Notes under the pieces: model-generated
Told to the model about the DNA's origin: nothing
The model's database searches: none
What the model saw: only the letters and a program-made list of their open reading frames with translations
Position numbers and translations under genes: made by a program
IMG/VR virus record: IMGVR_UViG_3300037249_000287
Span: 1 to 64,000 of that record
Origin: a virus
Lineage: Duplodnaviria; Caudoviricetes
DNA length: 64,000 nt
Reading direction: 5' to 3' (one strand)
Shown here: piece after piece, positions 37,035 through 62,941 of the stretch
How positions within the stretch are numbered: the first letter of the stretch is position 1
Layout: every line of letters starts with the position of its first letter

Positions 37035-37072
37035 ATAACTTAAAAGGATTTGGATATGTTTAGGATATTGTG

Positions 37073-37160
37073 TATCTTTGCATTGTGGATAGGGTGGTTT
37101 GGCCACCATCCGATAAAGGGCAAGTCTGTCGCCCTTTCCACAATTTCAATGACAGACATT
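37073..37160 (+). promoter_or_regulatory. Promoter plus structured leader of HNH gene
   Basis: TTTG 37049-52, 20 nt, TATCTTTGCA; two hairpins; loop GTCTGTC complementary to GACAGAC overlapping ATG 37149. Confidence 0.55.
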
Positions 37161-38006
37161 ATTAAAAGAACAGGCAATATGACAAAGATGAAACCTTTAG
37201 CACAAGTGCTAAAAGAATTTAGAGACGTTCATGGTGATAGGTATATCTACACGAACGTCAATGACACAAATTACAGTGGAGGAAAAAGTGTTATTCCTGT
37301 TATTTGTAGCAAGCATGGCTTATTTCCGATACGTGTTGAAAATCATTTACACGGGCAAGGATGCCCTGAATGTGCTAAGATAAAACGCAGAATAAGCAAC
37401 ACTGGCAATGCGCGCAAAAGAACCAAACTTGTGTACGGTGTTGGCGTAAACGATTATAAAGGAAACACAAAATACAACCATGTACATATACCATCTTATC
37501 ACACATGGGGGCAAATGCTAAAAAGGTGTTATTCAAAAGAATTTTTAGATAAACAACCAACTTATCGTGGATGTTTTGTTTGCGAGGAATGGTGGTCGTT
37601 CTCAAACTTTAAGAAGTGGTTTGACGAGAACTATATCGAAGGGTACAGTTTGGATAAGGATATTTTATTTAAGGGGAATAAAATTTATTCTCCAGAAACT
37701 TGCTGTTTCGTACCTAACGAGATAAACGTTCTATTGTGTAAGAGTGATGCAAAAAGAGGGAAAATGCCAATTGGTGTGTACGAAAGAAAACTTGTAAATG
37801 GTAGCAGTTATATGGCATATCTTAACAAGAATGGATGTCGTATAAATCTTGGTACATTTTACTCAGTAGAAGAGGCTTTCAAAGTCTACAAGCAAGCAAA
37901 GGAAGCCCACATTAAGGATATGGCAACCCAATACTACAAAGACGGCAAAATCACAAAGAAAGTGTATGATGCCTTAATGAAGTACGAGGTTGAAATTACA
38001 GACTAA
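37149..38006 (+). CDS. Free-standing HNH-type homing endonuclease with N-terminal Zn-ribbon and C-terminal AP2-like domain
   Basis: CSKHG...GCPEC; WGQMLKRCY...CEEW..FSNF...LDKDIL; RINLGTFYSVEEA; start could alternatively be 37179. Confidence 0.8.
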   Translation: MTDIIKRTGNMTKMKPLAQVLKEFRDVHGDRYIYTNVNDTNYSGGKSVIPVICSKHGLFPIRVENHLHGQGCPECAKIKRRISNTGNARKRTKLVYGVGVNDYKGNTKYNHVHIPSYHTWGQMLKRCYSKEFLDKQPTYRGCFVCEEWWSFSNFKKWFDENYIEGYSLDKDILFKGNKIYSPETCCFVPNEINVLLCKSDAKRGKMPIGVYERKLVNGSSYMAYLNKNGCRINLGTFYSVEEAFKVYKQAKEAHIKDMATQYYKDGKITKKVYDALMKYEVEITD

Positions 38007-38045
38007 TTATTTGGAAGTAAGAAAAATAATAACTATCTTTGCAAC

Positions 38046-38645
38046 ATGGATAGACAGATGTTAGAATTTCAGCGCAATGCTCTGTTGGGAAAAATCTCAG
38101 CAGAGCCATTGTGCGCACAATACAAGGCTGCTTGGCGTTCGTGTGGTGATGACAAGGATATGCTTGTTGGTCTTGCAATGCAACAGCAAAGCATACCTTA
38201 TTTCAGCTATGCTTGTTATGAGCATCTTGGCCTTACTAAAGATTATATAAAAAAGAATTTTGGCGATTATATCAACGGAAATAAAACCCTTTGTGATGTA
38301 GATGGTGTTAAGGGTTACACATATCAGCTATACGTTGATTTTAGCGACGATTTTAAGGCAGTAGCAGACGTTACGAGCTTTATGTGGTGTGATAACCCGA
38401 CAGTTGAGATTGAAGCCTGCAAATGTCCTGTATTTTACGTTTCAAACAATAGTGACGTGCATTTCGTGCTTGATGGTTACAATTCGATAAGGATATACTT
38501 GTTTGACGAAAGTAATGTTTTTATAGATGATTCTGATGATACGTGCGACATTATAGTTTACAAATACGGCAATAAGGCTAAAGTTGAGATTGGCAAGTAC
38601 TGCCTTGGTAAAGTTAAGATATTCAATAAAGCGTTAAGGTTATGA
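38046..38645 (+). CDS. Hypothetical tail-module protein
   Basis: 199-aa ORF; -7 element at 38034-38043 just upstream. Confidence 0.65.
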   Translation: MDRQMLEFQRNALLGKISAEPLCAQYKAAWRSCGDDKDMLVGLAMQQQSIPYFSYACYEHLGLTKDYIKKNFGDYINGNKTLCDVDGVKGYTYQLYVDFSDDFKAVADVTSFMWCDNPTVEIEACKCPVFYVSNNSDVHFVLDGYNSIRIYLFDESNVFIDDSDDTCDIIVYKYGNKAKVEIGKYCLGKVKIFNKALRL

Positions 38646-39124
38646 ACAATTCAGCAAACAAATATTTCATAAGAAACACTGATGGAGGTGCGTTTCAGGA
38701 TATAACAACACTTTTTGACGGTGTCGCTATATTAAAGGTTGACGGTATGCTTGCAAAAGGCAAACCAGTTAATATATACACCGCTCAGTGGATAGATTCA
38801 CAAGAAGAGGATTTTCTTATAACTGCTACAGATGAACATGAAAACCCTATTGTGATACGTGAAAATGTCGATATAGAAATAACGTTTATCATTCGGCAAA
38901 AGTATGCAAGTGCAACTATAAACGTTCTGTCCGTTCATGATAGCTTTATAAACTACATGACGGGAAGTGATGTTTGGATAAAATCATCTTATGTCGGAAA
39001 CAAATATGTGCATTGTGTGTGTTTGTCTGAATACAGCCCAACCACTGTATCTTTGCAGCGTGGCGACAATTCATACATTATGGGTACGATAAAGCTTCAC
39101 ACGCTTGACACACAACATGTATAG
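38642..39124 (+). CDS. Putative distal tail (Dit-like) protein
   Basis: 160 aa, last gene of tail operon after tape measure. Confidence 0.45.
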   Translation: MNNSANKYFIRNTDGGAFQDITTLFDGVAILKVDGMLAKGKPVNIYTAQWIDSQEEDFLITATDEHENPIVIRENVDIEITFIIRQKYASATINVLSVHDSFINYMTGSDVWIKSSYVGNKYVHCVCLSEYSPTTVSLQRGDNSYIMGTIKLHTLDTQHV

Positions 39125-39160
39125 GAAATTAACTGGACTCATCTTTTTTCATACTGATAA

Positions 39161-39197
39161 AAAAAGCCACAGAATCCGTGACGGACTAAGTGGCTTT
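39161..39197. terminator. Probable bidirectional terminator between convergent operons
   Basis: AAAAAGCCAC...GTGGCTTT stem with inner TCCG/CGGA. Confidence 0.65.
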
Positions 39198-39221
39198 ATA
39201 ATGAATAAAGAAAAGCGATAG

Positions 39222-39599
39222 TTAAAAGAAATATTTCCACCAAGGTTTGCTTCTTTCGCATTCAAGGGCAAGTTGGATATTTTCTTTTTCAGTCTGTAGT
39301 CCCGCAATGGTATCGTTAAGATTTACTATTTTCTGGCTCAGTTCCCTAACTTGTGACTGCAAGCCAGAAATTGTTTTGTTCTTTTCGTCAATTTCTGCGA
39401 GTGCCTTTTCGTACAAAGAATCTCCTTCAAGGTTTAGCTGTTTGAGATGTTCGATACGTTCATTCAATTGTTTGTTGCGCCCTTTTAGCCCAGATGATAC
39501 TTTTTTGTAATGTTCAAGGTCGGCGCACAATGCGGAGTTATCCGCATCCATTAATGCGATACGTTGTTCCAAATCTTTGATTTTTTCCTCTTGTGTCAT
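39222..39599 (-). CDS. Coiled-coil hypothetical protein
   Basis: 125 aa heptad pattern, ends KPWWKYFF. Confidence 0.65.
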   Translation of the reverse strand: MTQEEKIKDLEQRIALMDADNSALCADLEHYKKVSSGLKGRNKQLNERIEHLKQLNLEGDSLYEKALAEIDEKNKTISGLQSQVRELSQKIVNLNDTIAGLQTEKENIQLALECERSKPWWKYFF

Positions 39600-39649
39600 A
39601 ATTACATGTAATTTTAAAAGTTAGACATATTATTTGTTGTAACGTTACA

Positions 39650-40051
39650 TTAAAAGTCTGGTTGGTTGTACGCCTCTAAGTCTGGATGCTCGTCTGTGCT
39701 ACCCATCGACTCTTTTATCATCTTTTGTTCTTGCTTGACGTTGTATCTTGGGTATGAAAACATGTTACATGTCTGTCCTATTACCGAATAGCCCTCTATT
39801 ATTTGGCCATGTTCTATCACATAGGGAACTATGTCGCCTTTTACTTCAACAAGCATTCCTTTGCCAAAGTGTGTTGTGAGGTATTTGATAAAATACCCCT
39901 TGAATATCACTTTCCAAGAATGGTACTTGTCTTCGACAATAGTTCCATCCGATTTCTTATATCCTTTTTTGTATTCAGACAAAAACAATATGCAAGAATC
40001 TGGTAGTACTTTTATTGCGTCAACAAAACCTATTACACTAAATGCGGCCAT
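39650..40051 (-). CDS. Single-stranded DNA-binding protein (OB fold)
   Basis: SWKVIFKG...FGKGMLVEVKGDI SSB pattern with acidic tail; start re-set to 40051. Confidence 0.6.
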   Translation of the reverse strand: MAAFSVIGFVDAIKVLPDSCILFLSEYKKGYKKSDGTIVEDKYHSWKVIFKGYFIKYLTTHFGKGMLVEVKGDIVPYVIEHGQIIEGYSVIGQTCNMFSYPRYNVKQEQKMIKESMGSTDEHPDLEAYNQPDF

Positions 40052-40056
40052 AATGT

Positions 40057-40257
40057 TTATAGTTTTTGTTCGTAATACCCACATGCGTTGTCGTGGGCTT
40101 TAATTGTTTTATATCCGCTTTTACTTCTTGCGGATGGCTGTTTGATGCAATACACTTGACGTGAAGTTGAATTTTTGTTAGGAAATTCACTTCGGTGATA
40201 CACACAATGTAAGCAAAACTTGTTTGGCGTTATTTTTTTTATTAGCACTTCTTCCAT
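40057..40257 (-). CDS. Small Cys-rich hypothetical protein
   Basis: CLHC...C...C pattern. Confidence 0.5.
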   Translation of the reverse strand: MEEVLIKKITPNKFCLHCVYHRSEFPNKNSTSRQVYCIKQPSARSKSGYKTIKAHDNACGYYEQKL

Positions 40258-40279
40258 GTTTGCAGGTTTTCATTTAAGG

Positions 40280-40364
40280 CACTTTTTGGCCGTTTTAAGC
40301 GCATTTCTATGCAATGGCGGTATAGTTAGCCACTGATGCAAAAGAATGTGCTTGTAGGGCTTTA
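40280..40364. repeat. ~85-bp quasi-palindromic intergenic element, copy 1
   Basis: Aligns with 47761-47846, 49161-49246, 61816-61891. Confidence 0.7.
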
Positions 40365-40664
40365 TTTTTGTTTATCCAATTCCATAATAGTCAAAACGCA
40401 GTAGTTGGCGATGTCCATAATGTTGTCCCGTAGGCTTTCGTCCTTGATGATGTTCATTTCTCTACCTTTAACCATATTCTTCACACGCTTTAGCTTGTCG
40501 TTGATGCGTGCAACTGCTGGTATGTAGCCAAACTCTTGAATTGTTTCGCTGAAACTATTGCCATAGTCGGCATTTTTTTTCTTGTACGTATCAAACATTT
40601 CGGAAAGGATTTTTCCAAACCTACTATTATCTGACTCCATGTTTTCTTCGTATTCTAATGTCAT
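40362..40664 (-). CDS. DUF1599 / nucleotide-modification-associated domain protein
   Basis: YKKKNADYGNSF...RINDKLKR...ESLRDNIMDIANY; start re-set to 40664 (ATGA overlap). Confidence 0.75.
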   Translation of the reverse strand: MTLEYEENMESDNSRFGKILSEMFDTYKKKNADYGNSFSETIQEFGYIPAVARINDKLKRVKNMVKGREMNIIKDESLRDNIMDIANYCVLTIMELDKQK

Positions 40665-41074
40665 TTTTCTTTTTCGTTTTCGTATTGAAACAGTAATCCG
40701 ACTATCGCACGGCACAGGTCATATTGCGACTTGCCTTTTGGTAATTTATCCCAATTATGGGAAAGCCAGTCAGCAAGTTTATCCATGCCACCAAGTTTAG
40801 ATAATGGCATTTCTTGAATATCACTTGCTTTAAGGCACATAAAACAGTCATAGAGATATTTACCAGTTGAATAGGACTTGCCATACATGTGTTTTGTAAC
40901 AACCCACACGCCTTCCTCCAAACCTTTGTCGGAACGCATAGACTGTGGCTCATAGATAATCTTCTTACCTCTTTGAACCTTTTTGTAAAGCACGTTGTCA
41001 AATGGCGGTTCAGGCTCTTGATAAGCCTGATACCTGCCATTCGGAAGCTTGACGTATAGTTTCTGTTTTTCCAT
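40661..41074 (-). CDS. Hypothetical protein
   Basis: ORF coupled to neighbours. Confidence 0.6.
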   Translation of the reverse strand: MEKQKLYVKLPNGRYQAYQEPEPPFDNVLYKKVQRGKKIIYEPQSMRSDKGLEEGVWVVTKHMYGKSYSTGKYLYDCFMCLKASDIQEMPLSKLGGMDKLADWLSHNWDKLPKGKSQYDLCRAIVGLLFQYENEKEK

Positions 41075-41083
41075 ACACCACAA

Positions 41084-41572
41084 TTAGTTTACTTTAATCT
41101 TACGACCGCCCTTCATTTTTCTTTCGCCTACAGTAGCTTTCTTTGGATTGGGAATGCCATGTTCCTTTCGATATTTGATTGCATCTTGTTCATTACAAAC
41201 CCTAATAAGTTCGCAATCACCGCAGCCTTCTTCATCTTTGTTATCAAGTAATCTTGCTTTTTCAGCGACACCTTTGAGCATTTCTGTGGCAAGTTTCAAC
41301 CCAGCGATAGAACCTGATGTCTGTACAAGTTTCAGTGCTTCAAGAATAATGTGTGCAACTCTATCAATACCTTCATCGCCCTTTCCTGTTAATGACATTG
41401 TAAGAATAGCGGCAATAGTACAGATAATGTCATTGTTTTCCTTTTCAGCGGTTAGTACCGTCAATTCGTCATTTTTGTCGTTTCCATAGATTGCAAACAA
41501 AGTTTCACCATTGCTAATTTTCTGTGCAATCTTTTCAAGTTCGACTGCTACATTAAAGTCTTTTGTTTTCAT
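41084..41572 (-). CDS. Hypothetical protein
   Basis: 162 aa with CxxC..C near the end. Confidence 0.6.
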   Translation of the reverse strand: MKTKDFNVAVELEKIAQKISNGETLFAIYGNDKNDELTVLTAEKENNDIICTIAAILTMSLTGKGDEGIDRVAHIILEALKLVQTSGSIAGLKLATEMLKGVAEKARLLDNKDEEGCGDCELIRVCNEQDAIKYRKEHGIPNPKKATVGERKMKGGRKIKVN

Positions 41573-41643
41573 AATGCTAATAATTAATTAATAAATGAAT
41601 TGTGTTGCAAAATTATATTTTTTCTTTAAGTATTCCAAATAAA

Positions 41644-42315
41644 TTAAGATTTATTACCATAAAGTTCATTAAGTGCATCCGATATACTCTCACCGTTAGC
41701 TTCTTTCATGCGCTTGTATTCTTCAAACGTGATGGTGTTCTTTTTGCTTTCCTCGATAAGCTTGTCATTGCGCATGCGTTCAATGTCGGCATAGTAGTGT
41801 TCGCGTTCGACCAAGAACTTGTTCAAAGCCTCGGTTACAACAAGTGCATAAGAGTCGCCTCCATAAAACCTTCCATATCTACCACCTTCAAAGCGTGTAA
41901 TAAACAGCAAAAACTCGACCACCTTTAACGTCTTGTAGTTCGCATAGATGCTACATGCAAGGTTGTAGACCTGTTCTTTCGAGAACCTATCATTCGTAAC
42001 GCCAAGAAAAATGAACATGCCCTGTAGGATGTTGTACAGCCAATTTGCAGAAGAACCTTTGCCGTATGTGATGTCTATGCGTACAAACGTAGGACTGTCT
42101 CGTCTAAAGCACGCCATCGCATCTTGTACGAATGCGTTCTTGTTAGCATAAGAGAATTTGTTACTAAGCTGTGTAAAGCTACCATACCTCGTCGTTATCT
42201 CCGTCACGAACGTCGGCTTGTTGTTGGTTGCCAATGCGGTCTGTGAGCTGCTGACTGAATGCGTTTGCTTCTGCAACAGTTCGCCTAATCTTGTCGGTGA
42301 TTGTTTCTCTTCCAT
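41644..42315 (-). CDS. DUF6633-like replication-associated protein
   Basis: LKVVEFLLFITRFEGGRYGRFYG motif, downstream of initiator. Confidence 0.55.
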   Translation of the reverse strand: MEEKQSPTRLGELLQKQTHSVSSSQTALATNNKPTFVTEITTRYGSFTQLSNKFSYANKNAFVQDAMACFRRDSPTFVRIDITYGKGSSANWLYNILQGMFIFLGVTNDRFSKEQVYNLACSIYANYKTLKVVEFLLFITRFEGGRYGRFYGGDSYALVVTEALNKFLVEREHYYADIERMRNDKLIEESKKNTITFEEYKRMKEANGESISDALNELYGNKS

Positions 42316-42922
42316 AATTCACGTTATTGTTGTTGTTCTTTCTATTCTTAGCCCATGTGGTGCAAGCCATCTTCCAGTTCTTCATCGGATTCTTTCCGAC
42401 TTTCCATCCGTTACTTTCGTAGAAAGCATAGAAAGCCTCCGCGTCAAACGTGTAGCCTTTTTCAAGAATGTGCGCTTGAATCTCTTGTATTGTTGGCTTT
42501 ACAAATCTTTTTTCTTTTTTAGAAGATATGATAGTATCTTCTTTTTCTTTTATTATTTCAGTCTTTATTTCTTTTATGTCTTTATTTATTTGTGGTTGAT
42601 TATTACCGTGTCGGAAATTTTCCGTGTCGGAAATTTTAGTGGCTTTAATAGTGTATTTAACAGCACCAAAAGTTCCATTTTTGTTACTTTGAGAACCTTT
42701 AACCACCCATCCGCTTGCCACCAATTCGTTTATGTACTTACGCAATGTGTCTACACTATATCCAATTTCTCGTGCCATTGGTTCAAGATAAAAATTCCAA
42801 TCATCTGGCTTGCATACCATAAACACATAGACAAACCTTGCTCTATCAGATAGAGTTTTGTCAAAAATCAAATCACGAGGAACAATTTGATAATTATTTA
42901 ATTCATTGTGTATGTTTGCCAT
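42179..42922 (-). CDS. Phage replication initiator (N-terminal winged HTH)
   Basis: LSDRARFVYVFM...MAREIGYSVDTLRKYINELVASGWV; C-terminal FVKPTIQE...FYAFYESNGWKVGKNPMKNWK; internal iterons. Confidence 0.8.
   Translation of the reverse strand: MANIHNELNNYQIVPRDLIFDKTLSDRARFVYVFMVCKPDDWNFYLEPMAREIGYSVDTLRKYINELVASGWVVKGSQSNKNGTFGAVKYTIKATKISDTENFRHGNNQPQINKDIKEIKTEIIKEKEDTIISSKKEKRFVKPTIQEIQAHILEKGYTFDAEAFYAFYESNGWKVGKNPMKNWKMACTTWAKNRKNNNNNVNYGRETITDKIRRTVAEANAFSQQLTDRIGNQQQADVRDGDNDEVW
42606..42637. repeat. Tandem 16-bp iterons (candidate origin)
   Basis: CCGTGTCGGAAATTTT x2 exact, adjacent to AT-rich tract 42500-42600. Confidence 0.7.
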
Positions 42923-42924
42923 AA

Positions 42925-43365
42925 CTATTTATTGTTTATAAATTCAAAAATACCATTCAATGTAGAAATTTTATCTTTTTCTGCAACATAGATTTCACCG
43001 CAAAAAACATAATATTCTTTAACATTATTCATTATCCAACGCTTTATTATATCTTTTCTAACCCTCAAACCGTTATGCGTAAGTATTTGTTTTAATCGCA
43101 TAGAACTACACGCATTTGGCAACTGTTTATTGTAAAGGGGTTGGTATTTGGCTATATATTTCATTTCCATTTCATCCAATTTTTCAGACTTACACTTTAT
43201 TGTTCTTATAGTGTCAAAGTCCTTGTCAGAAGGATGGCATAAAATTCTTTTCAAGCCATATTCTGTTTGACCCACATAAACAACTTTTTCGTTTTTCAAT
43301 AAGAAATAAATACAAGGGAAATACACATCTTGTAATTTGTACTCATAATCAAATTTTTCTTCCAT
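42925..43365 (-). CDS. GIY-YIG family endonuclease
   Basis: CIYFL...VVYVGQT...RILCH...E.KYIAKYQPLYN; start re-set to MEEK 43365 (alternative 43413). Confidence 0.7.
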   Translation of the reverse strand: MEEKFDYEYKLQDVYFPCIYFLLKNEKVVYVGQTEYGLKRILCHPSDKDFDTIRTIKCKSEKLDEMEMKYIAKYQPLYNKQLPNACSSMRLKQILTHNGLRVRKDIIKRWIMNNVKEYYVFCGEIYVAEKDKISTLNGIFEFINNK

Positions 43366-43387
43366 ATATGACCGCTTTAAAAGCCTA

Positions 43388-43521
43388 ATGAGCGATTTAC
43401 TCGTTGCGGTCATTCAACTTTCAATCGCCCATCTTGGCAAAAATTGTTATAACATTATCTTTTATCCTTTGCGTCTTAAATGACCGTCAACGCATCGAAT
43501 GGATTTTCTTTTGCAAAGATA
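43388..43521 (-). promoter_or_regulatory. Promoter plus kissing-loop/loop-E leader
   Basis: Loops CGGUCAUU / AAUGACCG; internal loop GAAA/GAGUA. Confidence 0.7.
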
Positions 43522-43563
43522 CTACTTATATACCGTAGTTCCAAATATTTTAGTGTTATTTAA

Positions 43564-44334
43564 TTAAAACAATGTTAATTGCCGTTTTTCTCTTGCTATT
43601 CTATCGCAAGCAACCTTATGGTAATCTTCATTGAGTTCTATTCCGATAAAATCCCGCTTTTCGCGTATGGCCGCAACACAGGTACTGCCAGAGCCGCACG
43701 TATTATCAAGCACCAAATCGCCTTTGTTTGTATATGTACGTATAAGGTATCTAAGCAAATCGACGGGCTTTTGTGTGACATGATACTTGTCTTTGTCGCG
43801 CTTAAAATAAAGCAGATTTGTCGGGTATCGTGTGCCGTCGTTGTTTGTTGTGCATCGTTTAACAGTAGAGCGCAAAACAGACGTTGGCGTTCTTTCTCCT
43901 CTGTCTCTTATGTATGGCTCAAATCCTTCTCGCATCTGTGGATTGTATGTCATGTGACAATCTTTTGTTGTCGGCGACGTAGAACCGAATCCAAAGACGC
44001 AAACATCTTCTGTTGTCTTTATCGGCTGATAATGCGAGTTCAGAAAGTTAGTACCGTTTTCCTTTACCCATACCCAGTTGTATTTATACATTTCAAGATT
44101 GCTTGAAATAAGCTTTGTGGTGAACGGCTGTTGTGCAAACAGTACAATTGCACCATCTGGCTTTATTATGCGCTTGTAGGCGTTCCAAAGCGGCTCAAAC
44201 GGAATCATGCAGTCCCATTTACAGGGTGTTGTGTTGTACGGCAAGTCGCAAAGTATCAAATCAACGCTTTTGTCGTCTATACCCTGCATTACGTCAAGAC
44301 AGTCACCATTGTAGATTTTGTTAAGTTCTAACAT
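43564..44334 (-). CDS. DNA methyltransferase (N4/N6, beta class)
   Basis: DLILCDLPY catalytic motif, HVTQKPVDL, VLDNTCGSGST SAM motif; start re-set to 44334. Confidence 0.9.
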   Translation of the reverse strand: MLELNKIYNGDCLDVMQGIDDKSVDLILCDLPYNTTPCKWDCMIPFEPLWNAYKRIIKPDGAIVLFAQQPFTTKLISSNLEMYKYNWVWVKENGTNFLNSHYQPIKTTEDVCVFGFGSTSPTTKDCHMTYNPQMREGFEPYIRDRGERTPTSVLRSTVKRCTTNNDGTRYPTNLLYFKRDKDKYHVTQKPVDLLRYLIRTYTNKGDLVLDNTCGSGSTCVAAIREKRDFIGIELNEDYHKVACDRIAREKRQLTLF

Positions 44335-44347
44335 AATTAAAATAAAG

Positions 44348-44875
44348 TTAGTTGTTGTTATTGCTGACAAAGATAAAGTTATATCCATGAATAGATTTTC
44401 GCTCTCCTCTTGCAACCCTCGCCACCGTATTATGTGTTATGCCAAGAACTTCTTCTGCTTCACGGCAAGATTTATACACAATACCATTCTGTAAACATAA
44501 GACTCTTTTGTATTTGTATTCTTTGTTTTCCCTATTATAATATTGGGTATTTCTATCTGCCCAACGTAGATTGTCAATGCTATTATTAGTGCGATTATTT
44601 CTGTCTATATGGTCTGGTGAATAGCCATCCAAATCTCCTTCTGGCATAAATGTTTGCAAAACAATTTCGTGCAGTTTAAAGCGATGGCATTTAAGTGAAA
44701 GCGTTATCGTTCCTACGGAATCTGGTTTGTATTTCGCTATTACGCCTTTTCTTTTGAAACGGCCAAGGTTTGAGACTTGATACAACCCTTTTGGGAATAC
44801 ATACTCTTTTACTTTTTCCCATCTACTGTTTCGAGAATGTAATTTTAAAACATCTTTCCAAATTTCCTGTTCCAT
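44348..44875 (-). CDS. NUMOD4-HNH homing endonuclease with NUMOD1-like tail
   Basis: EIWKDV...YQVSNLGR; DHIDRNNRTNNSIDNLRW; YKSCREA. Confidence 0.85.
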   Translation of the reverse strand: MEQEIWKDVLKLHSRNSRWEKVKEYVFPKGLYQVSNLGRFKRKGVIAKYKPDSVGTITLSLKCHRFKLHEIVLQTFMPEGDLDGYSPDHIDRNNRTNNSIDNLRWADRNTQYYNRENKEYKYKRVLCLQNGIVYKSCREAEEVLGITHNTVARVARGERKSIHGYNFIFVSNNNN

Positions 44876-44890
44876 GTGTTAATAAAAACA

Positions 44891-45006
44891 TTGCAATCGC
44901 AACTACTAAGGTGCTCTACTACCTGTTCGTTGCGACTGCAAGTATATTGTTGTTCGTATTTGCGGCTAATGTAGAGCGCACCGCATTGAACTATAATGCA
45001 AAGGTA
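44891..45006 (-). promoter_or_regulatory. Promoter plus kissing-loop/loop-E leader
   Basis: Loops GCUCUAC / GUAGAGC; internal loop GAAC/UAGUA; TTTG-19 nt-TACCTTTGCA. Confidence 0.7.
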
Positions 45007-45045
45007 CGAAAAATTACCGAATCAGCAAAATGTTTTAATTGTTTT

Positions 45046-45690
45046 TTAGAAAAGATTTAATTGCTTTACAATTTCTCCATTACTCATTTGCGTCTCTCCA
45101 AAGCATTCTGCCGCAAAACGTTTTTCTTGTGCGTCAAAATAATCTTTGTCAATCTCACAGCCGTAGAAATCAAAGCCTAGTTTGTAAGCTGCTATGCGGC
45201 TACTTCCAGAACCTATCATCGGGTCAAATATCATCTCTCCTTCTTTGACGTAGTTTTTGAATATCCAAGCGTATAACGCTACACTTTTTTGTGTCGGATG
45301 AATCTTCTTTTCTCCGTTAGAAGAAACGTGCTGCCTAAACATCTTTGCTGGACTATCGAAACTCGACCACGCATATTCGCACATGGCAAGCGAGAAATCA
45401 AACGGCTGCATTTTGTCCCATATAAGGAAATGTTTGTTTGGTGGTAGTCCGAAATAGTTACCGCCCCATATAATCTGATTCTTAGACACACGAAATAATT
45501 CGTCAAAGAACTCTTTGTTTGGAACTTGACAATCCCAACTTTTTCTTTCGTGTGCCTGTCTGACTGGATTGCTTGATATACTTATTCCATAAGGAGGGTC
45601 GGCGCAAGCCAAATCGAAATATTTATCTGGCAATGTACGCATGTATTCCACGCAATCGCAGTTATAAACATCACTTCTTGTTTCTTTCAT
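45046..45690 (-). CDS. DNA methyltransferase (N4/N6, beta class)
   Basis: DLACADPPY, HPTQKSVALY, IFDPMIGSGSS. Confidence 0.9.
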   Translation of the reverse strand: MKETRSDVYNCDCVEYMRTLPDKYFDLACADPPYGISISSNPVRQAHERKSWDCQVPNKEFFDELFRVSKNQIIWGGNYFGLPPNKHFLIWDKMQPFDFSLAMCEYAWSSFDSPAKMFRQHVSSNGEKKIHPTQKSVALYAWIFKNYVKEGEMIFDPMIGSGSSRIAAYKLGFDFYGCEIDKDYFDAQEKRFAAECFGETQMSNGEIVKQLNLF

Positions 45691-46018
45691 TTTCGTTCTT
45701 TTTGTTTTTGTAAATCAACGCACTAACCTTGGAATAGATGCCGACGTGACGCAGTTTCTTTATCTTGTCAAACACACCAGCGCTTTCCGTCTTGCGGTAA
45801 CTTTCGCCAAGCAATTTGGGAATGTCGTTCCTTGCAATGCGTTCATCATCGACACACCTTGAAAGCATTTCAACCTCCTTTTGTGTCGCCTCGCATTCAT
45901 TTCTCTTATTGGCACGAATAATGGAATCCACGTCAATGCCGTGCTTCTTAGCCATGTACCGCAACCGCGATAGATAGTCGCGGCACAAGGCTTGAAGAGT
46001 TTCGTTTCGCTTGGTCAT
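45671..46018 (-). CDS. Hypothetical protein
   Basis: 115 aa coupled ORF. Confidence 0.6.
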   Translation of the reverse strand: MTKRNETLQALCRDYLSRLRYMAKKHGIDVDSIIRANKRNECEATQKEVEMLSRCVDDERIARNDIPKLLGESYRKTESAGVFDKIKKLRHVGIYSKVSALIYKNKKNENERNKK

Positions 46019-46191
46019 TACTCAGGCTTAACGAACTGTGCGCATGCCTCAATGACGGCAGTGCCAATAACGACAATTGCACCATTGATGGCGGTTGCGT
46101 ACTCTGGCGACGTGTATGTCACCACGGCTACTGCGATGGCCTGTACACCACCGACGATTGCACTCACTAACTGAAAAGTCTTTTTGCTCAT
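46018..46191 (-). CDS. Small two-TM membrane protein (absent from ORF track)
   Basis: Hand translation MSKKTFQLVSAIVGGVQAIAVAVVTY...VIEACAQFVKPE, 57 aa; TAATG coupling to next gene. Confidence 0.65.
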   Translation of the reverse strand: MSKKTFQLVSAIVGGVQAIAVAVVTYTSPEYATAINGAIVVIGTAVIEACAQFVKPE

Positions 46192-46230
46192 AATCTAAAA
46201 TTTTAAGTTGTTAATAAAACGTGAGTTGTC

Positions 46231-46845
46231 TCACTTTTGTATTTTATCTAAATATTTCCAAACAAAACCACCAGAATGTTTCATTTCCCCAGAGCAACAT
46301 CTTCTAATACTTCTTGGATATACACCTGTTGCTTTTCCTGCCGCAACGGAATGTTCGTAAATACCAAGCAAATTGCCATTGTCGTCTAAGCACATCACGT
46401 TTTTAATATATCCTTTGCTAATTTTCTTTATCAAACCTTTCCTATATGAATTGTTTTTTGCAACAGTGGCTTTGGTTCGCTCTTTTATAGTTCCGTAATT
46501 ATGATTGTAAAAGCCGTCACACCATTCAAGATTGTCAACACGGTTGTTTGACGGATTTTCATCTTTGTGATTTATTTGTGGCAAATTATTCGGATTAGGA
46601 ATGAAAGCTATTGCTACAAGTCTATGGACGCTTTTTACAAAAGTTTTTCCGTTTTTCCTTAGTGTAACATGCTTTTCACCTCTACCAGTCATTGATGGCT
46701 GTGGTTTTAAAATTCTTTCTTTTAGAACATGTGTGTAACCACCCCTTCCCTTACGGATTTTTGGTAGACTTTTTATTCTTCCAAAACTACTTGCTTCATA
46801 CAAACCTTCAAAACCTACTACTGGTTTCCAAATTTCTTGTTCCAT
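46231..46845 (-). CDS. NUMOD4-HNH homing endonuclease
   Basis: EIWKPVVGFEGLYEASSFGRIKS; VHRLVAIAFIPNPNNLPQINHKDENPSNNRVDNLEW. Confidence 0.9.
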   Translation of the reverse strand: MEQEIWKPVVGFEGLYEASSFGRIKSLPKIRKGRGGYTHVLKERILKPQPSMTGRGEKHVTLRKNGKTFVKSVHRLVAIAFIPNPNNLPQINHKDENPSNNRVDNLEWCDGFYNHNYGTIKERTKATVAKNNSYRKGLIKKISKGYIKNVMCLDDNGNLLGIYEHSVAAGKATGVYPRSIRRCCSGEMKHSGGFVWKYLDKIQK

Positions 46846-46853
46846 AAAATCAA

Positions 46854-46960
46854 AACTCCCAAGTGTTCGGTGTATGGGTCGAGCATACACCTACTTACAA
46901 GGGAATTAAGTGTTTCGCGTTAGGATTCTCGACCAATCCTTTATTTACGATGCAAAGATA
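46854..46960 (-). promoter_or_regulatory. Promoter plus kissing-loop/loop-E leader
   Basis: 7-nt loops GGUCGAG / CUCGACC; internal loop AAGUA/GAAC. Confidence 0.75.
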
Positions 46961-46997
46961 CAAAAACTTTTTGTAATATCCAAATTTTTAACTTACT

Positions 46998-47351
46998 TTA
47001 AAAAGGTAAGTTTGAATCGTCTGTACCTTGCGCACTTTCTTGGTTTTGAAGTGGCTGTTGCTGCTTGTTGTTTTGCTGTTGACCACCAATAGCGGTCACT
47101 TTCCAAGCCTGCAAATTGACAAAATATTTACCTTGCCATTCAGCACCTTTGATGTCAAATTGAACCGACACATCTTGCCCAACAACAACACCCATAGCTT
47201 TCCACTTATCCTCACCAAAGACCTCAAATTTGATTTTCTGAGGGTATTGCTCTTTTGTCTCTAAGATGAAGAAATTCTTCACCACCTCACCATTCTTGCC
47301 ATTGAAACGCTGCTCTGGCAGAATCTGAATAACTGTACCATTTAAATCCAT
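46998..47351 (-). CDS. DUF3127-like single-stranded DNA-binding protein
   Basis: ETKEQYPQKIKFEVFG...FDIKGAEWQGKYFVNLQAWKV; ends DDSNLPF. Confidence 0.8.
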   Translation of the reverse strand: MDLNGTVIQILPEQRFNGKNGEVVKNFFILETKEQYPQKIKFEVFGEDKWKAMGVVVGQDVSVQFDIKGAEWQGKYFVNLQAWKVTAIGGQQQNNKQQQPLQNQESAQGTDDSNLPF

Positions 47352-48428: not shown

Positions 48429-48693
48429 AATAACTTAATAAATTCTTTTGTTTTACGTTAAACTTAGTGCAAAGATATATATATTTAAAGCATAAACAAT
48501 AAAACATTAACATAACATAAGATTTTTAACTTTTAATAAGTAAACTATTTTATATATGGTAACTTATTAAATAAGTATATTTATTATACACACACGCGCA
48601 CGCACGCGAGATTCGGCAAATATTAAGCAAATCCTTTGCCCGATTTCCGCTTAATATACACAAAAACGGCAAAATAAAACGGTTTAATCATGC

Positions 48694-49059
48694 TTATATT
48701 CTTATCTTTCCAAACTTAACGTATTGCCCGTAGTAAGCATCGAAACTGTTGCCTTTAACCCACGCAAGTTTCTTGCAGAACTGCATCACCTCATTATGTG
48801 GAGTGTCGCGAAAGTCGTAAACTACTCCGTCCGAATCGGCAGACACACAACACGTAGTCGGAATCTCAACCTCCTCATTCTCCTTGCGCAGATAGTCAAC
48901 TATCTTTGCCATTGTGTCAAACGAAATGTCAACATCAAAACAACTGTCAACACGATAATTGACAGAATCATCATAAATGGTAACATCACCATCGCAACTT
49001 TCTTTTTCTACGAGCGACTTGACGTAGGCTTCCTGCTCTTTTGTCTTTACCTGTAACAT
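48694..49059 (-). CDS. Hypothetical protein
   Basis: Start re-set to MLQVK 49059; TATCTTTGCG -7 element just upstream. Confidence 0.6.
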   Translation of the reverse strand: MLQVKTKEQEAYVKSLVEKESCDGDVTIYDDSVNYRVDSCFDVDISFDTMAKIVDYLRKENEEVEIPTTCCVSADSDGVVYDFRDTPHNEVMQFCKKLAWVKGNSFDAYYGQYVKFGKIRI

Positions 49060-49160
49060 AATCCTTTTGTTTAAGTGAAACTTTCCGCAAAGATACACAT
49101 TTAAGCACCTAACTAAGCATTTTCTTGGGAATTTTTAACTTAAAAAAGAAAAAAACGCAT

Positions 49161-49246
49161 TTTAAGCCGTTCTAAGCCGTTTTCTTTTGCCCTGCGGTAA
49201 CTTATAAGGGAAACACCATAAAAAGCGTTCTACAGGGCTGAAAATG
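49161..49246. repeat. ~85-bp quasi-palindromic intergenic element, copy 3
   Basis: See copy 1. Confidence 0.7.
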
Positions 49247-49599
49247 CCCTTAAAACGAATCCTATAACATCATACACTACCACACAAAACACAAAAACAC
49301 CGATTTCTGGCAAATCTACACAATATTACACACAGCACAATGACAACATTTACAGCTGACGCATTTCACCTCTACAATCCCTTCGCGATTTTCTTCCTTG
49401 ACGCAAATTTTATTTTTTTTCGTTTTTAATTTTCTTCTTTAAAAATTTTTTTTCTTTTCGATTTTTTGATTTTTAAAAACAACATTGTTTTGACCATATA
49501 GATTTTGCTGGTTCTAACCCCTCCCACCCCTATATCGTTTTTGTGTCTCCGCCAGTTACTTTGCACCCCTTTTTATTTCCTACCTTTGCATGCTGAAAA

Positions 49600-50230
49600 A
49601 TAGAATTAGAAAACGTTCATTTACTAAAAATAGCTATATTTGGGCAGTTATTTTCAGATGCTGAAAAACAGAAATAAGATAATATATTAATACGTAAACT
49701 AATTTAAATAAGTATATTTTTCTTTTGCCAAATATTAATTATAACTATCTTTGCAGTATATTATCATATTATCATATTAAAACAATAAACTAAACTAAAC
49801 TAACAAATAACAATACAATAATATTAAAATAACAATACTAAACTTATAACTTATAACTTAAAATAAACTTATAATAATAATTTTCTTATATAATATGTAT
49901 ATAATATATATATTGTAAATAATTAGTCAATTTAGAAAATATATACTTAATGATATAGTAAAAAATAATTATATAAAATAAGATATTTTGTGGAATATGT
50001 TTTCTTATTTATTTACACTAAATTAATATAACTTATTTATTTTCAGTAATTTATATATTTGTCGGTTGTAAATAATAAATTACAATATTTTCGTATTATT
50101 TTTATCAAAAAGTATTTTATTATTACATTTCTTTATTGTCTTAACATATTTTTAATACGATTTTAACACTAAAAATACTGATTTTCAGATAGTTACGTAT
50201 TAATTGTTAAAAACATATTATTTCTTGCAA
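49600..50230. other. Extremely AT-rich non-coding region
   Basis: Almost no G/C; short tandem units TAAAC, AATAC, ACTTATA; -7 elements at 49581 and 49746. Confidence 0.8.
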
Positions 50231-50257
50231 ATATCAAAATATCGTCGTACCTTTGCA
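50224..50257 (+). promoter_or_regulatory. Promoter of early rightward transcript
   Basis: CTTG-20 nt-TACCTTTGCA. Confidence 0.65.
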
Positions 50258-50259
50258 AC

Positions 50260-51240
50260 ATCAAAACGGAGGACAGCCGTTTAAAAAATGTTCAACGAGG
50301 ACGAGGGAAAATCAAGGTATTCATTTACTGCGAATAATCACCTTCCGACTACATTATAGCAATCATTATAGCTATTTTGTTGTATGTTCTTTAAAACACT
50401 GATAACAAGCTATTTTGCCCAAGGGTGAAAAGGTAGTGAGGAGACCGTATTTTAGAAATGATATGTATATCAAAAGTTATTAACGGAAAATCTATTTTTT
50501 AGGGAGTATAAACGAAATAACCTGCGGCCACAAAATAGGACTGTTATCAATTTACCATACAGGAGAAAAGGTGCAGCAGTTAGTACTATTCGAAGTGTAC
50601 CGAAAAGACTGTTAACTGAATAATGCTAAAAGATATATGTGTAACAAATCTTTGCAACCGAAAACGGATAAAAGAGGGAAAAATAGAAATATCAACTTTA
50701 AACTTTTCCGCTAATTCGGCAGGAGCGCAGACCAAGGGAGAAAGATAGTAACTACATTTGCAAGTGACTGAAAAGGTAGCCTCGAGCAGGTTACATATTA
50801 TAGAATAATAGTATATGATACTTTTTAGGTAGCGAGGACACGGACAAGGTATAATGATATATTACCTAAACATGTAGACGGGAGGCCGAAGACTTCCTGC
50901 ATGTAATAATCTAATTTTAGATTATTTGGTGATAAAAATTTAAATAAGGAATAAAGCAGTACTTTATTTTCGTTTATTCAATACCTTTTGCACTTGGTTG
51001 CAAAGATAGGTATTTTATTGAAAATGTTTTAGCCGAGGTGCAGGAAGGCTGAAACATAATAAAAAGGTAGGACTTGGCGCTGACAACAATAAAAACGAAA
51101 TATAGATTTTTGATATTACGACACTTATTTTTGTGTTAACAGATACTGAAAAGGTGCAGAAAAGTACACTAATTATTTAGCGTGCAGCCTTGGTGATTTT
51201 CGCGACTTTTGCCCAAGGTACAATTTATTTATAATTCATT
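50260..51240 (+). ncRNA. Candidate large structured non-coding RNA / leader
   Basis: ~1 kb without ORF of 60 aa or more; many hairpins and a nested long-range helix; repeated AAAAGGT(A/G). Confidence 0.45.
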
Positions 51241-51280
51241 TTAGTATTAATTAAAAAACAAAAATTAGGAGGTCACAATT

Positions 51281-51847
51281 ATGACAAAGAAAAATTCTAA
51301 CATCAGTAAAATTAACGCTCTTCGCAGCAAGTGTCAGCCCGTACATGCCGCAGCAGGTACATTTAATCAGGCAATAAAGTCCCTGCAGGGTCTTGAGTCG
51401 AAGCATGCCGAGGTCTTGGAGGCACTTGGTATCGAGTCCTTCGGTTTTAAAAACGTTTGCGCAGGCTGGGCAGACGCTCTCCGTATCAATGTTGACGGCA
51501 AGGACGTCATGGGTCTCTATATGTCCGAGACTGCAAAGGTTATTGTTTACGAAGGCGAAGAGCCCAAGGAGGTAAACATGTACGAGAAGGTCGAGACAAA
51601 GAAGGGCGTGAAGTACGTCTCCGTCAAGGTACGCACTCTCACGACTCCGAAGTTGTGGGATGATGGCATTATTCTGGAAGGTCTCTGTCAGTCGGCCGAG
51701 CTTGCCGAGGCGCAGAAGGAGGCCGCAGACGCTGAGGCACACAAGGCCGACCTGCTCGCCAAGGGTGAGGTGTATATTAAGAAGACCGCCAAGGGCACAG
51801 ACGGCAGCATTACGACAACTTTCGAGCAGGTAGAGGTCGAGGCATAA
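51281..51847 (+). CDS. Early hypothetical protein
   Basis: 188 aa, TAGGAGG upstream, C/G-ending codons. Confidence 0.8.
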   Translation: MTKKNSNISKINALRSKCQPVHAAAGTFNQAIKSLQGLESKHAEVLEALGIESFGFKNVCAGWADALRINVDGKDVMGLYMSETAKVIVYEGEEPKEVNMYEKVETKKGVKYVSVKVRTLTTPKLWDDGIILEGLCQSAELAEAQKEAADAEAHKADLLAKGEVYIKKTAKGTDGSITTTFEQVEVEA

Positions 51848-54745: not shown

Positions 54746-55069
54746 ATGGAGATACAGGATTATGTAGGAAAGTTTGCAAAGGTTGCAGGACACTACGGGA
54801 TGATTGACAATGTGTATGGTAGCCGTTTGGGATTTATCTGGTCGGATAAAGATAGCTGGACTGGCGAGTTGGTTGACGTTACAAACGTTGAGGTTTTAAC
54901 CAAGCAGGATGATGTTGCAAAAGCGTGGCTGAGTTCAAAAAACTATCTACTGCGTGAGCGTGCAGCATTAAAGGCACGTATTGCACGCAAGTTGGCGATA
55001 GACAACCAACAGATGTTAGGTGAATTGCTCGACTTTGTTGTTAGTTGGATTAACCGCTTGGGTGAATAG
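54746..55069 (+). CDS. Hypothetical protein
   Basis: 107 aa coupled ORF. Confidence 0.6.
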   Translation: MEIQDYVGKFAKVAGHYGMIDNVYGSRLGFIWSDKDSWTGELVDVTNVEVLTKQDDVAKAWLSSKNYLLRERAALKARIARKLAIDNQQMLGELLDFVVSWINRLGE

Positions 55070-55200
55070 GGCGTGCGTTCACTATCAGCGCGCCGATTGG
55101 GTGTTGACGCATATCACAACAAACGTTGTGTCGACTGCGGCATGTGTGGAGCGAGACCACCGCACCCGCAAAGATTTTGTGTTTTTTGATTAATACTTGT

Positions 55201-55239
55201 GTCCGTTGGTGGTTGTGACAACTACCGACGGACGTTTTT
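55201..55239 (+). terminator. Intrinsic terminator
   Basis: GTCCGTTGGTGGTTG-TGA-CAACTACCGACGGAC stem followed by GTTTTT. Confidence 0.75.
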
Positions 55240-55286
55240 CAAAAGACACGAACAAACCGAATTTAGTAATTAAAAAATAAATTGAT

Positions 55287-59479: not shown

Positions 59480-59563
59480 ATGATTGCATTGCTTATTATT
59501 TTAACGTGTATCATTAGACCTGACATACTGATAAACATGGGTGGCAGGTCGTTTAAAAAGTAA
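59480..59563 (+). CDS. Tiny hydrophobic peptide (27 aa)
   Basis: MIALLIILTCIIRPDILINMGGRSFKK with TAGGAG upstream. Confidence 0.35.
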   Translation: MIALLIILTCIIRPDILINMGGRSFKK

Positions 59564-59571
59564 CCAAAAAA

Positions 59572-59703
59572 TTTGGTTTTTACAAAAAGTTTTTGTATCT
59601 TTGCATCGTAAATATGACGCTTAACTCCTACTAAGCATCAACAAACTTAACAATGGTAACGAGTAAATCTGCGGAGGTAGGAGACCGCATTTTGAAAGTT
59701 ACC
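59572..59703 (+). promoter_or_regulatory. Promoter plus kissing-loop/loop-E leader
   Basis: TTTG-20 nt-TATCTTTGCA; loops CUCCUAC / GUAGGAG; internal loop GAGUA/GAAA. Confidence 0.7.
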
Positions 59704-59718
59704 TTTTGTTTTATACTT

Positions 59719-60537
59719 ATGGAAGAGATATGGAAAGATGTAGTTGGTTACGAAGGTTTGTATCAAGTAAGCAACTTCGGAAATGTGAAAAGCGTAAAAA
59801 GGGTTATTAAGAGAGCCAAAAATACACATTTAAGTGTAAAAGAACGATTATTGAAAATACATCAAAACCACAAGGGGTACAAAATGGTTTGTTTGTCAAA
59901 GCAAGGCAAACAAAAATTTTGCACTATCCATCGCCTTGTTGCAAAAGCGTTTATTCCAAACCCTCAAAATTTACCTCAAGTTAATCACAAAGACGAAGAT
60001 AAGATGAATAATCATGTAGACAACTTGGAGTGGTGTACAAATAAATATAATATAAACTACAATAATGGTGCTGCATTTAAAAGAGGTGTTAAAACAAAAA
60101 AGGAAAGATATAACTGGAAGGATGTTTGCGAAAGAATGATTGAGACTAAAACAAAAAACAATGTTTACACAAAACCAATTCCAGTTAATCAATTTACATG
60201 GGATGGTGTCTTTATAAAAAGATTCCGTTCTTCAGAACAAGTAAGTCGGGAGCTTGGAATAAATGGCACACACAGAGTAGCACAAGGCTTAAATAGGCAC
60301 GCTGGTGGATATATCTGGTTGTTTGACGAAGATATTGACAAAATAAAAGACAGAGTGCTGAATAAAAAACCCGAAAAAAGAATAGTTCAATATGACAATA
60401 ATGGTAATTTTATAAAAACGTGGGAAAATCAAAAAGAAGCGTCCAAATATTTAGGATTAACTACTTCGTCATTATGTGCTTGCTTGCGTGGGCGCACAAA
60501 AACATGCGGTGGTTATATTTGGAAGTATTATGAATAA
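59719..60537 (+). CDS. NUMOD4-HNH homing endonuclease with two NUMOD1-like domains
   Basis: EEIWKDVVGYEGLYQVSNFG; IHRLVAKAFIPNPQNLPQVNHKDEDKMNNHVDNLEW. Confidence 0.9.
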   Translation: MEEIWKDVVGYEGLYQVSNFGNVKSVKRVIKRAKNTHLSVKERLLKIHQNHKGYKMVCLSKQGKQKFCTIHRLVAKAFIPNPQNLPQVNHKDEDKMNNHVDNLEWCTNKYNINYNNGAAFKRGVKTKKERYNWKDVCERMIETKTKNNVYTKPIPVNQFTWDGVFIKRFRSSEQVSRELGINGTHRVAQGLNRHAGGYIWLFDEDIDKIKDRVLNKKPEKRIVQYDNNGNFIKTWENQKEASKYLGLTTSSLCACLRGRTKTCGGYIWKYYE

Positions 60538-62768: not shown

Positions 62769-62941
62769 TATCTTTGCACCAAGTAATCGAGGTGGCTCTC
62801 GGATTATAGAGTGTTCTTAGCGCATTTTGAGAAAAATGATATATCCTATTTGTTAGGAAGAATTAGACCCTGTAACCCCGAGCCACAGTCCTTGCTAAAA
62901 AGGACAGGTTACGGGGTTAATTCTTTTATAGCAGATAGGAT
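62769..62941 (+). promoter_or_regulatory. Promoter plus long kissing-loop leader
   Basis: Loops GUGGCUC / GAGCCAC; long second hairpin ends 2 nt before GTG start. Confidence 0.65.

Follow-up and report, generated by a model that had tools for sequence, protein, structure and literature searches.

The phage analysed here carries a family of leader RNAs, referred to below as type A, in which a promoter of the host type is followed by two hairpins with mutually complementary loops, by a run of U residues and by a gene that most often encodes a homing endonuclease. We regard the family as almost certainly real, and interpret it, with a probability of roughly 0.55, as a cis-acting brake on the downstream gene, a regulatory leader or attenuator based on a kissing loop within one molecule. 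The window, the whole stretch of 64,000 nt examined here, lies within a complete genome of 85,024 bp with terminal repeats and a G+C content of 40%. The tape-measure protein, of 2,893 aa, most closely resembles its counterparts in siphophages of Bacteroides, Parabacteroides and Riemerella, and a motif census counted 32 TAnnTTTGCA boxes, the -7 promoter type of Bacteroidota, in the genome. Megablast of the leader region against deposited phages gave no match, and a tRNA scan found none. One tract of about 2 kb within the window (49100-51250) has no ORF of at least 40 aa, yet features five TAnnTTTGCA boxes over both strands; neither a tRNA nor an Rfam match was found in it.

The type example (site 1) spans positions 46960-46846 of the minus strand and leads from the promoter through two hairpins and a U-run to the start codon of an HNH gene (Table 1). 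The first-pass annotation had described this leader as a promoter and two hairpins with complementary 7-nt loops and an AAGUA/GAAC internal loop, and both the sequence and the MFE and centroid folds bear this out. Hairpin 1 is present in both folds and aligns to covariance model R2 (see below). Loops 1 and 2 are exact complements, with a loop-loop duplex of -10.7 kcal/mol. Hairpin 2 had further been said to end 8 nt before the HNH ATG, which holds when four extra A-U/G.U pairs are counted and the end of the stem is placed at 46854. The ATG itself, at 46845, lies outside the structure, and the start codon is unpaired.

Table 1. Leader features, neighbouring genes and further leader copies. Positions are those of the window unless stated otherwise.
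Feature	Position	Strand	Details
Promoter, Bacteroidota-type (site 1)	46953..46984	-	-33 TTTG 46984-46981, 20-nt spacer, -7 box TAnnTTTG 46960-46953
Hairpin 1 (site 1)	46922..46940	-	6-bp stem, 7-nt loop GGUCGAG 46934-46928
Linker, purine/A-rich, single-stranded, 18 nt (site 1)	46904..46921	-	from sequence and model R2 alignment
Hairpin 2 (site 1)	46858..46903	-	7-bp outer stem, internal loop, 8-bp inner stem
Internal loop of hairpin 2 (site 1)	46896-46892 and 46868-46865	-	AAGUA (46896-46892) opposite GAAC (46868-46865)
Apical loop of hairpin 2, 7 nt (site 1)	46883-46877	-	CUCGACC
U-rich tail, terminator-like (site 1)	46846..46857	-	directly 3′ of hairpin 2, up to the start codon
HNH homing-endonuclease gene, 204 aa (site 1)	46231..46845	-	NUMOD4 + HNH_3, I-HmuI-like (Pfam, PHROGs)
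Site 2	44876..45006	-	-7 box 45006-44999, RNA 44984-44884, U-run, then HNH gene 44875-44348
Site 3	43366..43521	-	-7 box 43521-43514, RNA 43494-43379, internal loop in opposite orientation
Site 4	59596..59718	+	-7 box 59596-59603, RNA 59619-59712, then HNH gene 59719-60537
Site 5, type-A-like	62769..62927	+	-7 box 62769-62776, RNA 62785-62927, U-run after
Sixth copy	genome position 76980, outside the window		next ORF start 381 nt on, another HNH type
Type-B leader	37073..37160	+	-7 box 37073-37080, RNA 37083-37160, then HNH gene (phrog_953) 37179-38006

Six type-A leaders occur in this genome, with a different loop pair in each. The recurrence first reported at four further sites was confirmed within the window (sites 2 to 5), each site having its own pair of 7-8 nt. 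The accompanying claim of one architecture at all sites holds for the complementary pairs; at site 5, however, the partner of loop 1 lies within an internal loop of a long branched hairpin (fold z-score -5.7) and not in a hairpin loop. Similarly, of the six copies only sites 1-4 have the AGUA/GAA loop that had been expected throughout, in reversed arrangement at sites 2 and 3; it is absent from site 5 and from the copy at 76980. At these four sites AGUA stands opposite GAA between two helices, the sequence signature of the sarcin-ricin or loop-E motif, and on this signature the element is predicted to be a sarcin-ricin-like internal loop. At site 2, GAAC is found on the 5′ side and AGUA on the 3′ side, with an outer stem of 13 bp. 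The inner stem of both reversed-loop sites has 4 bp instead of 8, a joint switch of orientation and stem length through which the motif may remain on one helical face.

Sites 1, 2 and 4 are followed by NUMOD4/HNH_3 genes (Pfam, PHROGs), and site 4 has a near-identical ortholog in another phage (L098). Site 3 heads a 146-aa ORF with a weak endonuclease match, followed by a replication-initiator gene (42922-42179). The true start of the 146-aa ORF is the ATG at 43365, and a longer ORF call (start at 43413, with its ATG within loop 2) is probably an artefact. A third loop-1 word, a perfect 8-nt match at 43375-43368 on the minus strand, ends 2 nt before this ATG, so that loop 2 has two alternative partners; such an extra partner near the ATG is present at site 3 only. 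The ORF downstream of site 5 features an HTH region only and no nuclease signature. Within this ORF (62944-63789), an internal promoter box (63183-63190) is succeeded by 96 nt of structured sequence (fold z-score -3.0) and by an in-frame ATG at 63289, and the true gene may be the 166-aa C-terminal part with the HTH region. Between the copy at 76980 and its HNH gene, about 380 nt (genome positions 77114-77493, L172:2114-2493) lack a convincing ORF and hold a 16-nt direct repeat, at approximately L172:2323 and 2432.

A strict detector of kissing hairpins recognised four of the six leaders, compared to 1 of 360 shuffled leaders, which excludes chance for this context. Applied to the whole genome, it returned 12 matches versus about 6 in shuffled genomes; complementary hairpin pairs are thus common genome-wide, and it is their placement in leaders that carries the signal. 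A first, looser detector was too permissive (14 matches among 137 loose promoter windows), and reversed sequence was unusable as a control since complementarity survives reversal. A kissing-loop candidate at 55035-55250 was rejected: its 7-mer lies within a stem, it has no promoter, and it follows the end of a gene. Three strong hairpins are found there on the plus strand (55100-55245), 3′ of the gene ending at 55069, and the last of them (55200-55236) is followed by a U-run; these are probably operon terminators.

More copies were found 5′ of HNH relatives in other uncultured phages, giving 17 distinct type-A copies with 13 loop words. Complementarity extends over at least 7 nt in all 17, the energies of the loop-loop duplexes range from -7 to -11 kcal/mol, and a promoter box lies 10-21 nt upstream of hairpin 1 in every one. 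An alignment of eight copies, none of them from this genome (A6), was used as the seed of covariance model R2. When sites 1 and 4 were included, MAFFT misplaced the register of hairpin 1, and the copies of the window were therefore kept out as a test set. In A6, 96.9% of the pair cells are paired, a figure that drops to about 42% on sliding the partner by one to three columns, and the covariation score was reached by none of 500 shuffles. The loop-loop helix is paired in 56 of 56 cells, i.e. completely, with both sides changed in four of its seven pairs, in agreement with the initial suggestion that the preserved loop complementarity amounts to covariation. Only the AGUA/GAA loop, the most conserved sequence feature of type A, and a few loop-closing positions are invariant in A6, while stems and loops vary freely. 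The stem pairs include 21 G.U versus a single A.C, an excess that identifies the fold as a feature of a sense-strand RNA and not of a DNA palindrome.

The covariance-model search proposed in the first-pass annotation was run with this model from other phages, which never saw the window and does not encode loop complementarity; it describes hairpin 1, the linker and a bipartite hairpin 2 with a RAGUA/GAAM loop. R2 recovered the type example (46848-46939, minus strand) with 53.3 bits and an E value of 2.8e-9, and the second-best match in the whole genome, both strands included, was site 4 (19.5 bits, E 0.07). Over 50 phage records, R2 retrieved its seeds and one new copy, the reversed-loop variants being out of its reach, and an exact-arm pattern search of the viral collection retrieved one subfamily only, with two loop variants.

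The leader at 37084-37160 had been considered a variant of the kissing-loop family. It represents instead a separate RNA family, type B, with a three-way junction and a pseudoknot. The RNA begins at the transcription start and folds into helices P1, P2, which has an apical 6-nt palindrome, and P3; the loop of P3 pairs with a segment 8-10 nt past P1 to form the pseudoknot, and the junction of the three helices features a conserved GAUAG segment. Covariance model R1 was built from nine type-B copies. Its score of 74.9 bits at 37083-37160 is that of a seed sequence, and exactly two copies are found in this genome, this one and another at genome positions 81677-81754 (L172:6677-6754). In related phages, R1 yielded 29 matches, corresponding to 25 distinct sequences, in 20 of 50 records. 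The pseudoknot, which was left out of the model, has at least 6 nt in 24 of the 25, with 22 different words, and a promoter box is found about 10 nt upstream in 21. The distance from type-B RNA to ATG is 11-33 nt, with the pseudoknot strand about 20-27 nt upstream of the ATG, and these leaders have no clear terminator hairpin. In 18 of the 25 sequences the P2 loop has 8 nt, made up of two bases and the 6-nt palindrome, for which six different palindromes were noted; the chance of such a palindrome is about 1/64 per loop. A palindrome of this kind is unable to pair inside its own loop, which suggests pairing of two RNA molecules, and the loop sequences suggest that type B homodimerises by a kissing loop, like the HIV-1 dimerisation site.

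Type B also occurs in a cultured phage, C3_41T2LP (OR296439.1), whose host is Bacteroides uniformis MB20-41. Its three type-B leaders (35101-35179 and 4277-4355 on the minus strand, 51607-51691 on the plus strand) head genes for an I-HmuI-like endonuclease, an AntA/AntB antirepressor and an HTH-domain protein. The leader of the AntA/AntB gene is located directly 3′ of the tape-measure gene, a position also taken in this window. None of the type-B loci of C3_41T2LP has an annotated RNA feature, and a type-A leader was not found in this phage.

The leaders stand mainly, as initially claimed, ahead of endonuclease genes, which belong to several families of homing endonucleases (Pfam, PHROGs). Both type-B copies of this genome are followed by paralogous AP2-type HNH genes, and in relatives the downstream genes are mostly HNH or GIY-YIG homing endonucleases; type B there also heads genes for Ant antirepressors, for a replication-like protein and for unknowns. 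A type-A leader of the closest relative, G001, lies directly ahead of a replication initiator homologous to the one encoded at 42179-42922 of the window. The promoter region of this leader matches that of site 3 at 94% identity, and the match stops near the transcription start. The promoter regions of sites 1 and 4 are likewise nearly identical over 47 nt (46950-46996, minus strand, and 59560-59607, plus strand), although their leaders are completely different and their HNH proteins only 35% identical. G001 also lacks the promoter-leader-HNH unit of site 1, with 335 nt (48429-48763) in place of the 1264 nt at 46010-47273 of the window. This absence between two syntenic genes indicates that the unit behaves as an insertion, and the interval in G001 looks like an empty site for the cassette. 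The leaders are portable modules, strongly enriched on selfish nuclease cassettes and tied to no single protein. A third kind of HNH leader was seen in other phages (L044, L050-L080), about 140 nt upstream of HNH genes. It lacks kissing loops and has one promoter box about 137 nt and another about 20 nt ahead of the ATG; this two-box form resembles the T4 arrangement with a proximal promoter. In a crAss-like Bacteroides phage, the HNH gene adjoins its upstream gene and has no leader.

The diversity of these downstream genes bears on an early speculation that the leader is a partner or guide RNA of its nuclease, as the HEARO or omega RNA is of IscB. The one point in its favour is the HNH gene neighbourhood, and we now hold it to be exceedingly improbable. 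No IscB-type neighbour (RuvC + HNH) and no Rfam HEARO match were found; the HNH proteins are of three kinds, and the encoded nucleases are I-HmuI-like NUMOD4/HNH_3, AP2-type HNH or GIY-YIG proteins, not IscB. Replication initiators, Ant antirepressors and unknowns are found behind the same leader types. Moreover, both strands of the variable code are contained within the RNA, so that none is free for reading DNA.

Further indications on function come from hairpin 2 and the sequence that follows it. In 16 of the 17 distinct type-A copies (the exception being L166), hairpin 2 has a run of at least four U at its foot, compared to 6 of 56 A-rich regions upstream of ordinary genes in this phage and 11 of 76 generic strong hairpins. 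The run is still at the foot of hairpin 2 in the copy at 76980, though the next ORF is 381 nt away. A hairpin with an immediate U-run has the anatomy of a terminator, and its presence regardless of the distance to the ORF counts in favour of attenuation. Some copies have a stem-to-U-run spacing that is sub-optimal for an intrinsic terminator: in several, there is a gap of 3-5 nt between the G+C-rich stem and the U-run, or the A-rich linker offers the U-run a pairing partner. None of the leader sites was flagged by a simple terminator/promoter scan, which considers uninterrupted stems and sigma-70 boxes only, and the interrupted stems of the leaders are beyond its reach. With its approximately 21 stacked layers and central asymmetric internal loop, hairpin 2 also has the general shape of the early processing sites of T7, and could be conceived as an RNase III-type processing or stability element that sets mRNA half-life or uncouples the nuclease ORF from upstream transcripts. 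This is very unlikely in our view, as hairpin 1, the covarying loop contact and the U-run would be left unexplained; nor is the invariant AGUA/GAA loop known to act as a signal for RNase III.

From the fold and its covariation, strand and context, together with the U-run, we infer a mechanism of transcription attenuation. The Bacteroidota promoter, of host type, would fire, the two hairpins would fold and their loops would kiss. Hairpin 2 and the U-run would then halt most polymerases just ahead of the ORF, yielding an RNA of about 100 nt, and the nuclease ORF would be carried only by read-through transcripts, resulting in little nuclease mRNA. The loop-loop contact might stabilise the terminator hairpin or speed its folding; alternatively, it might provide a three-dimensional shape that is met by the transcription or translation machinery. 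The unrelated families of downstream genes fit a general cis-regulator, and the intrinsic terminators in endonuclease genes of the T4 family offer a precedent (PMC2988022). Several points count against attenuation, in that no competing antiterminator pairing is evident, no NusG-like or Q-like gene is encoded by the phage, and the type-B leaders occupy the same position without a clear terminator hairpin. In addition, the short and almost constant spacing to the ATG would suit a translational role just as well.

Control by translational repression or delay was indeed the function first proposed. In such a scheme, the kissing structure just 5′ of the start would limit or time the loading of ribosomes, possibly via competing pairings of loop 2. 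In 16 of the 17 copies the interval from hairpin 2 to the ATG is 4-22 nt, loop 2 of site 3 has its second perfect 8-nt partner near the ATG, the position of the type-B pseudoknot strand and the tight spacing of type B to the ATG point the same way, and endonuclease genes of the T4 family provide a precedent (PMC2988022). Against this, the start codon of the type example is outside the structure and unpaired, the extra partner by the ATG is confined to site 3, and the leaders of the window have no second TAnnTTTG box inside them. The U-run, present behind hairpin 2 also in the copy whose next ORF begins 381 nt further on, points at least equally to transcription attenuation. The host group does not rely on Shine-Dalgarno pairing. 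On balance, translational control appears possible but rather unlikely.

The same anatomy of a promoter, an RNA of about 100 nt and a terminator is also that of a small-RNA gene, and the unit from promoter to U-run might give an abundant short RNA that acts in trans on nascent leaders of its own cassette via a private loop code, or that forms dimers or multimers. Action on leaders of the same cassette would produce a dose-dependent self-limitation like that of P4 CI, P1/P7 c4 or ColE1 RNA I. Two copies are not directly followed by an ORF, each copy in a genome has its own loop word, and in one phage a pair of recent paralogs is distinguished by one compensatory loop pair. By a geometric estimate, the linker of 14-18 nt is barely long enough for an intramolecular contact, and the apical palindrome of type B, in 18 of 25 members, is pairable only between molecules. 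Intramolecular pairing is nevertheless sterically possible, and loop diversity is also expected from drift and compensation, which leaves action in trans improbable. If it were true, each selfish cassette would possess a private brake or immunity that senses copy number and is orthogonal to those of the other cassettes in the phage.

The leaders could not be assigned to a named motif, as already stated in the first-pass annotation. Searches with Rfam 15 gave no match in the whole window at the gathering score, and, over 37000-47100, nothing that overlapped a leader at E<=10; full-text searches of the literature library consulted retrieved no account of a leader of this kind. Several known systems share single traits with them. 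In riboswitches, a loop-loop contact ties an upstream element to a regulatory hairpin, as in the L5-L13 kissing loop of the cobalamin riboswitch, and the lysine riboswitch combines a loop E with a kissing loop, a likeness that extends to the loop-E motif in the kissing helix. Unlike riboswitches, the leaders have no conserved junction, ligand pocket or ligand-binding core: nearly all positions vary, and only AGUA/GAA and a few loop-closing positions are invariant. Fully complementary 7-nt loop pairs, such as those of ColE1 RNA I/RNA II and R1 CopA/CopT, give a stable, stacked loop-loop helix, and the 7-nt loops described here are likewise complementary over their entire length. The plasmid pairs, however, are antisense products acting between two molecules, whereas here both loops are on one strand and in one leader.

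In the phage P4 CI RNA (seqA/B/C) and in P1/P7 c4, short complementary words in a leader stop downstream transcription or translation. As in type A, these words lie in one leader transcript and differ between related elements; the P4 and P1/P7 RNAs are processed out and act on single-stranded targets. Covarying palindromic or mutually complementary loops are a hallmark of RNA-RNA association, as in the HIV-1 DIS and phi29 pRNA. Both kinds are seen here, palindromic in P2 of type B and complementary in type A, but the leaders are unrelated to those RNAs in sequence, size and biological role.

The closest parallel in terms of biology is provided by the T4 family, in which the expression of endonuclease genes is curbed by hairpins that hide the ribosome binding site and by intrinsic terminators (PMC2988022). 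Hairpin control is described for I-TevI, I-TevII, I-TevIII, segB and Aeh1 mobE, and terminators for mobE and segF, with approximately 30% termination at mobE (PMC2988022). The likeness consists in 5′ RNA structures that keep the expression of selfish nucleases low or late, including terminators and a hairpin just before the start. T4 elements are single hairpins which bury the Shine-Dalgarno site and depend on an embedded late promoter. The leaders of this study feature instead two hairpins, a covarying loop-loop helix, a loop-E-like motif and a host-type upstream promoter; their start is not buried, the leaders of the window have no second promoter box, and there is no sequence or Rfam relationship to the T4 elements. 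The present analysis contributes a model test on withheld copies, counts of the U-run, the reversed orientation of the loop-E signature, cargoes other than nucleases and the empty site; it also characterises the second family, type B, with its palindromic loop and its occurrence in a cultured pair of phage and host.

As passengers, homing endonucleases are toxic, and knowledge of how phages restrain them comes largely from the T4 group. In phages of Bacteroidota, a dominant gut phylum, the 5′ ends of their cassettes are now seen to be marked by two undescribed RNA families with strong covariation, which can be used in annotation to reveal cassette boundaries. The mechanistic model proposed for type A is a simple one, a terminator hairpin that would be held by a loop-loop contact. 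The occurrence of type B in the cultured pair of phage C3_41T2LP and B. uniformis makes bench experiments feasible. Lastly, the leaders constitute a natural set of mutually orthogonal kissing-loop pairs, which may serve as RNA parts.
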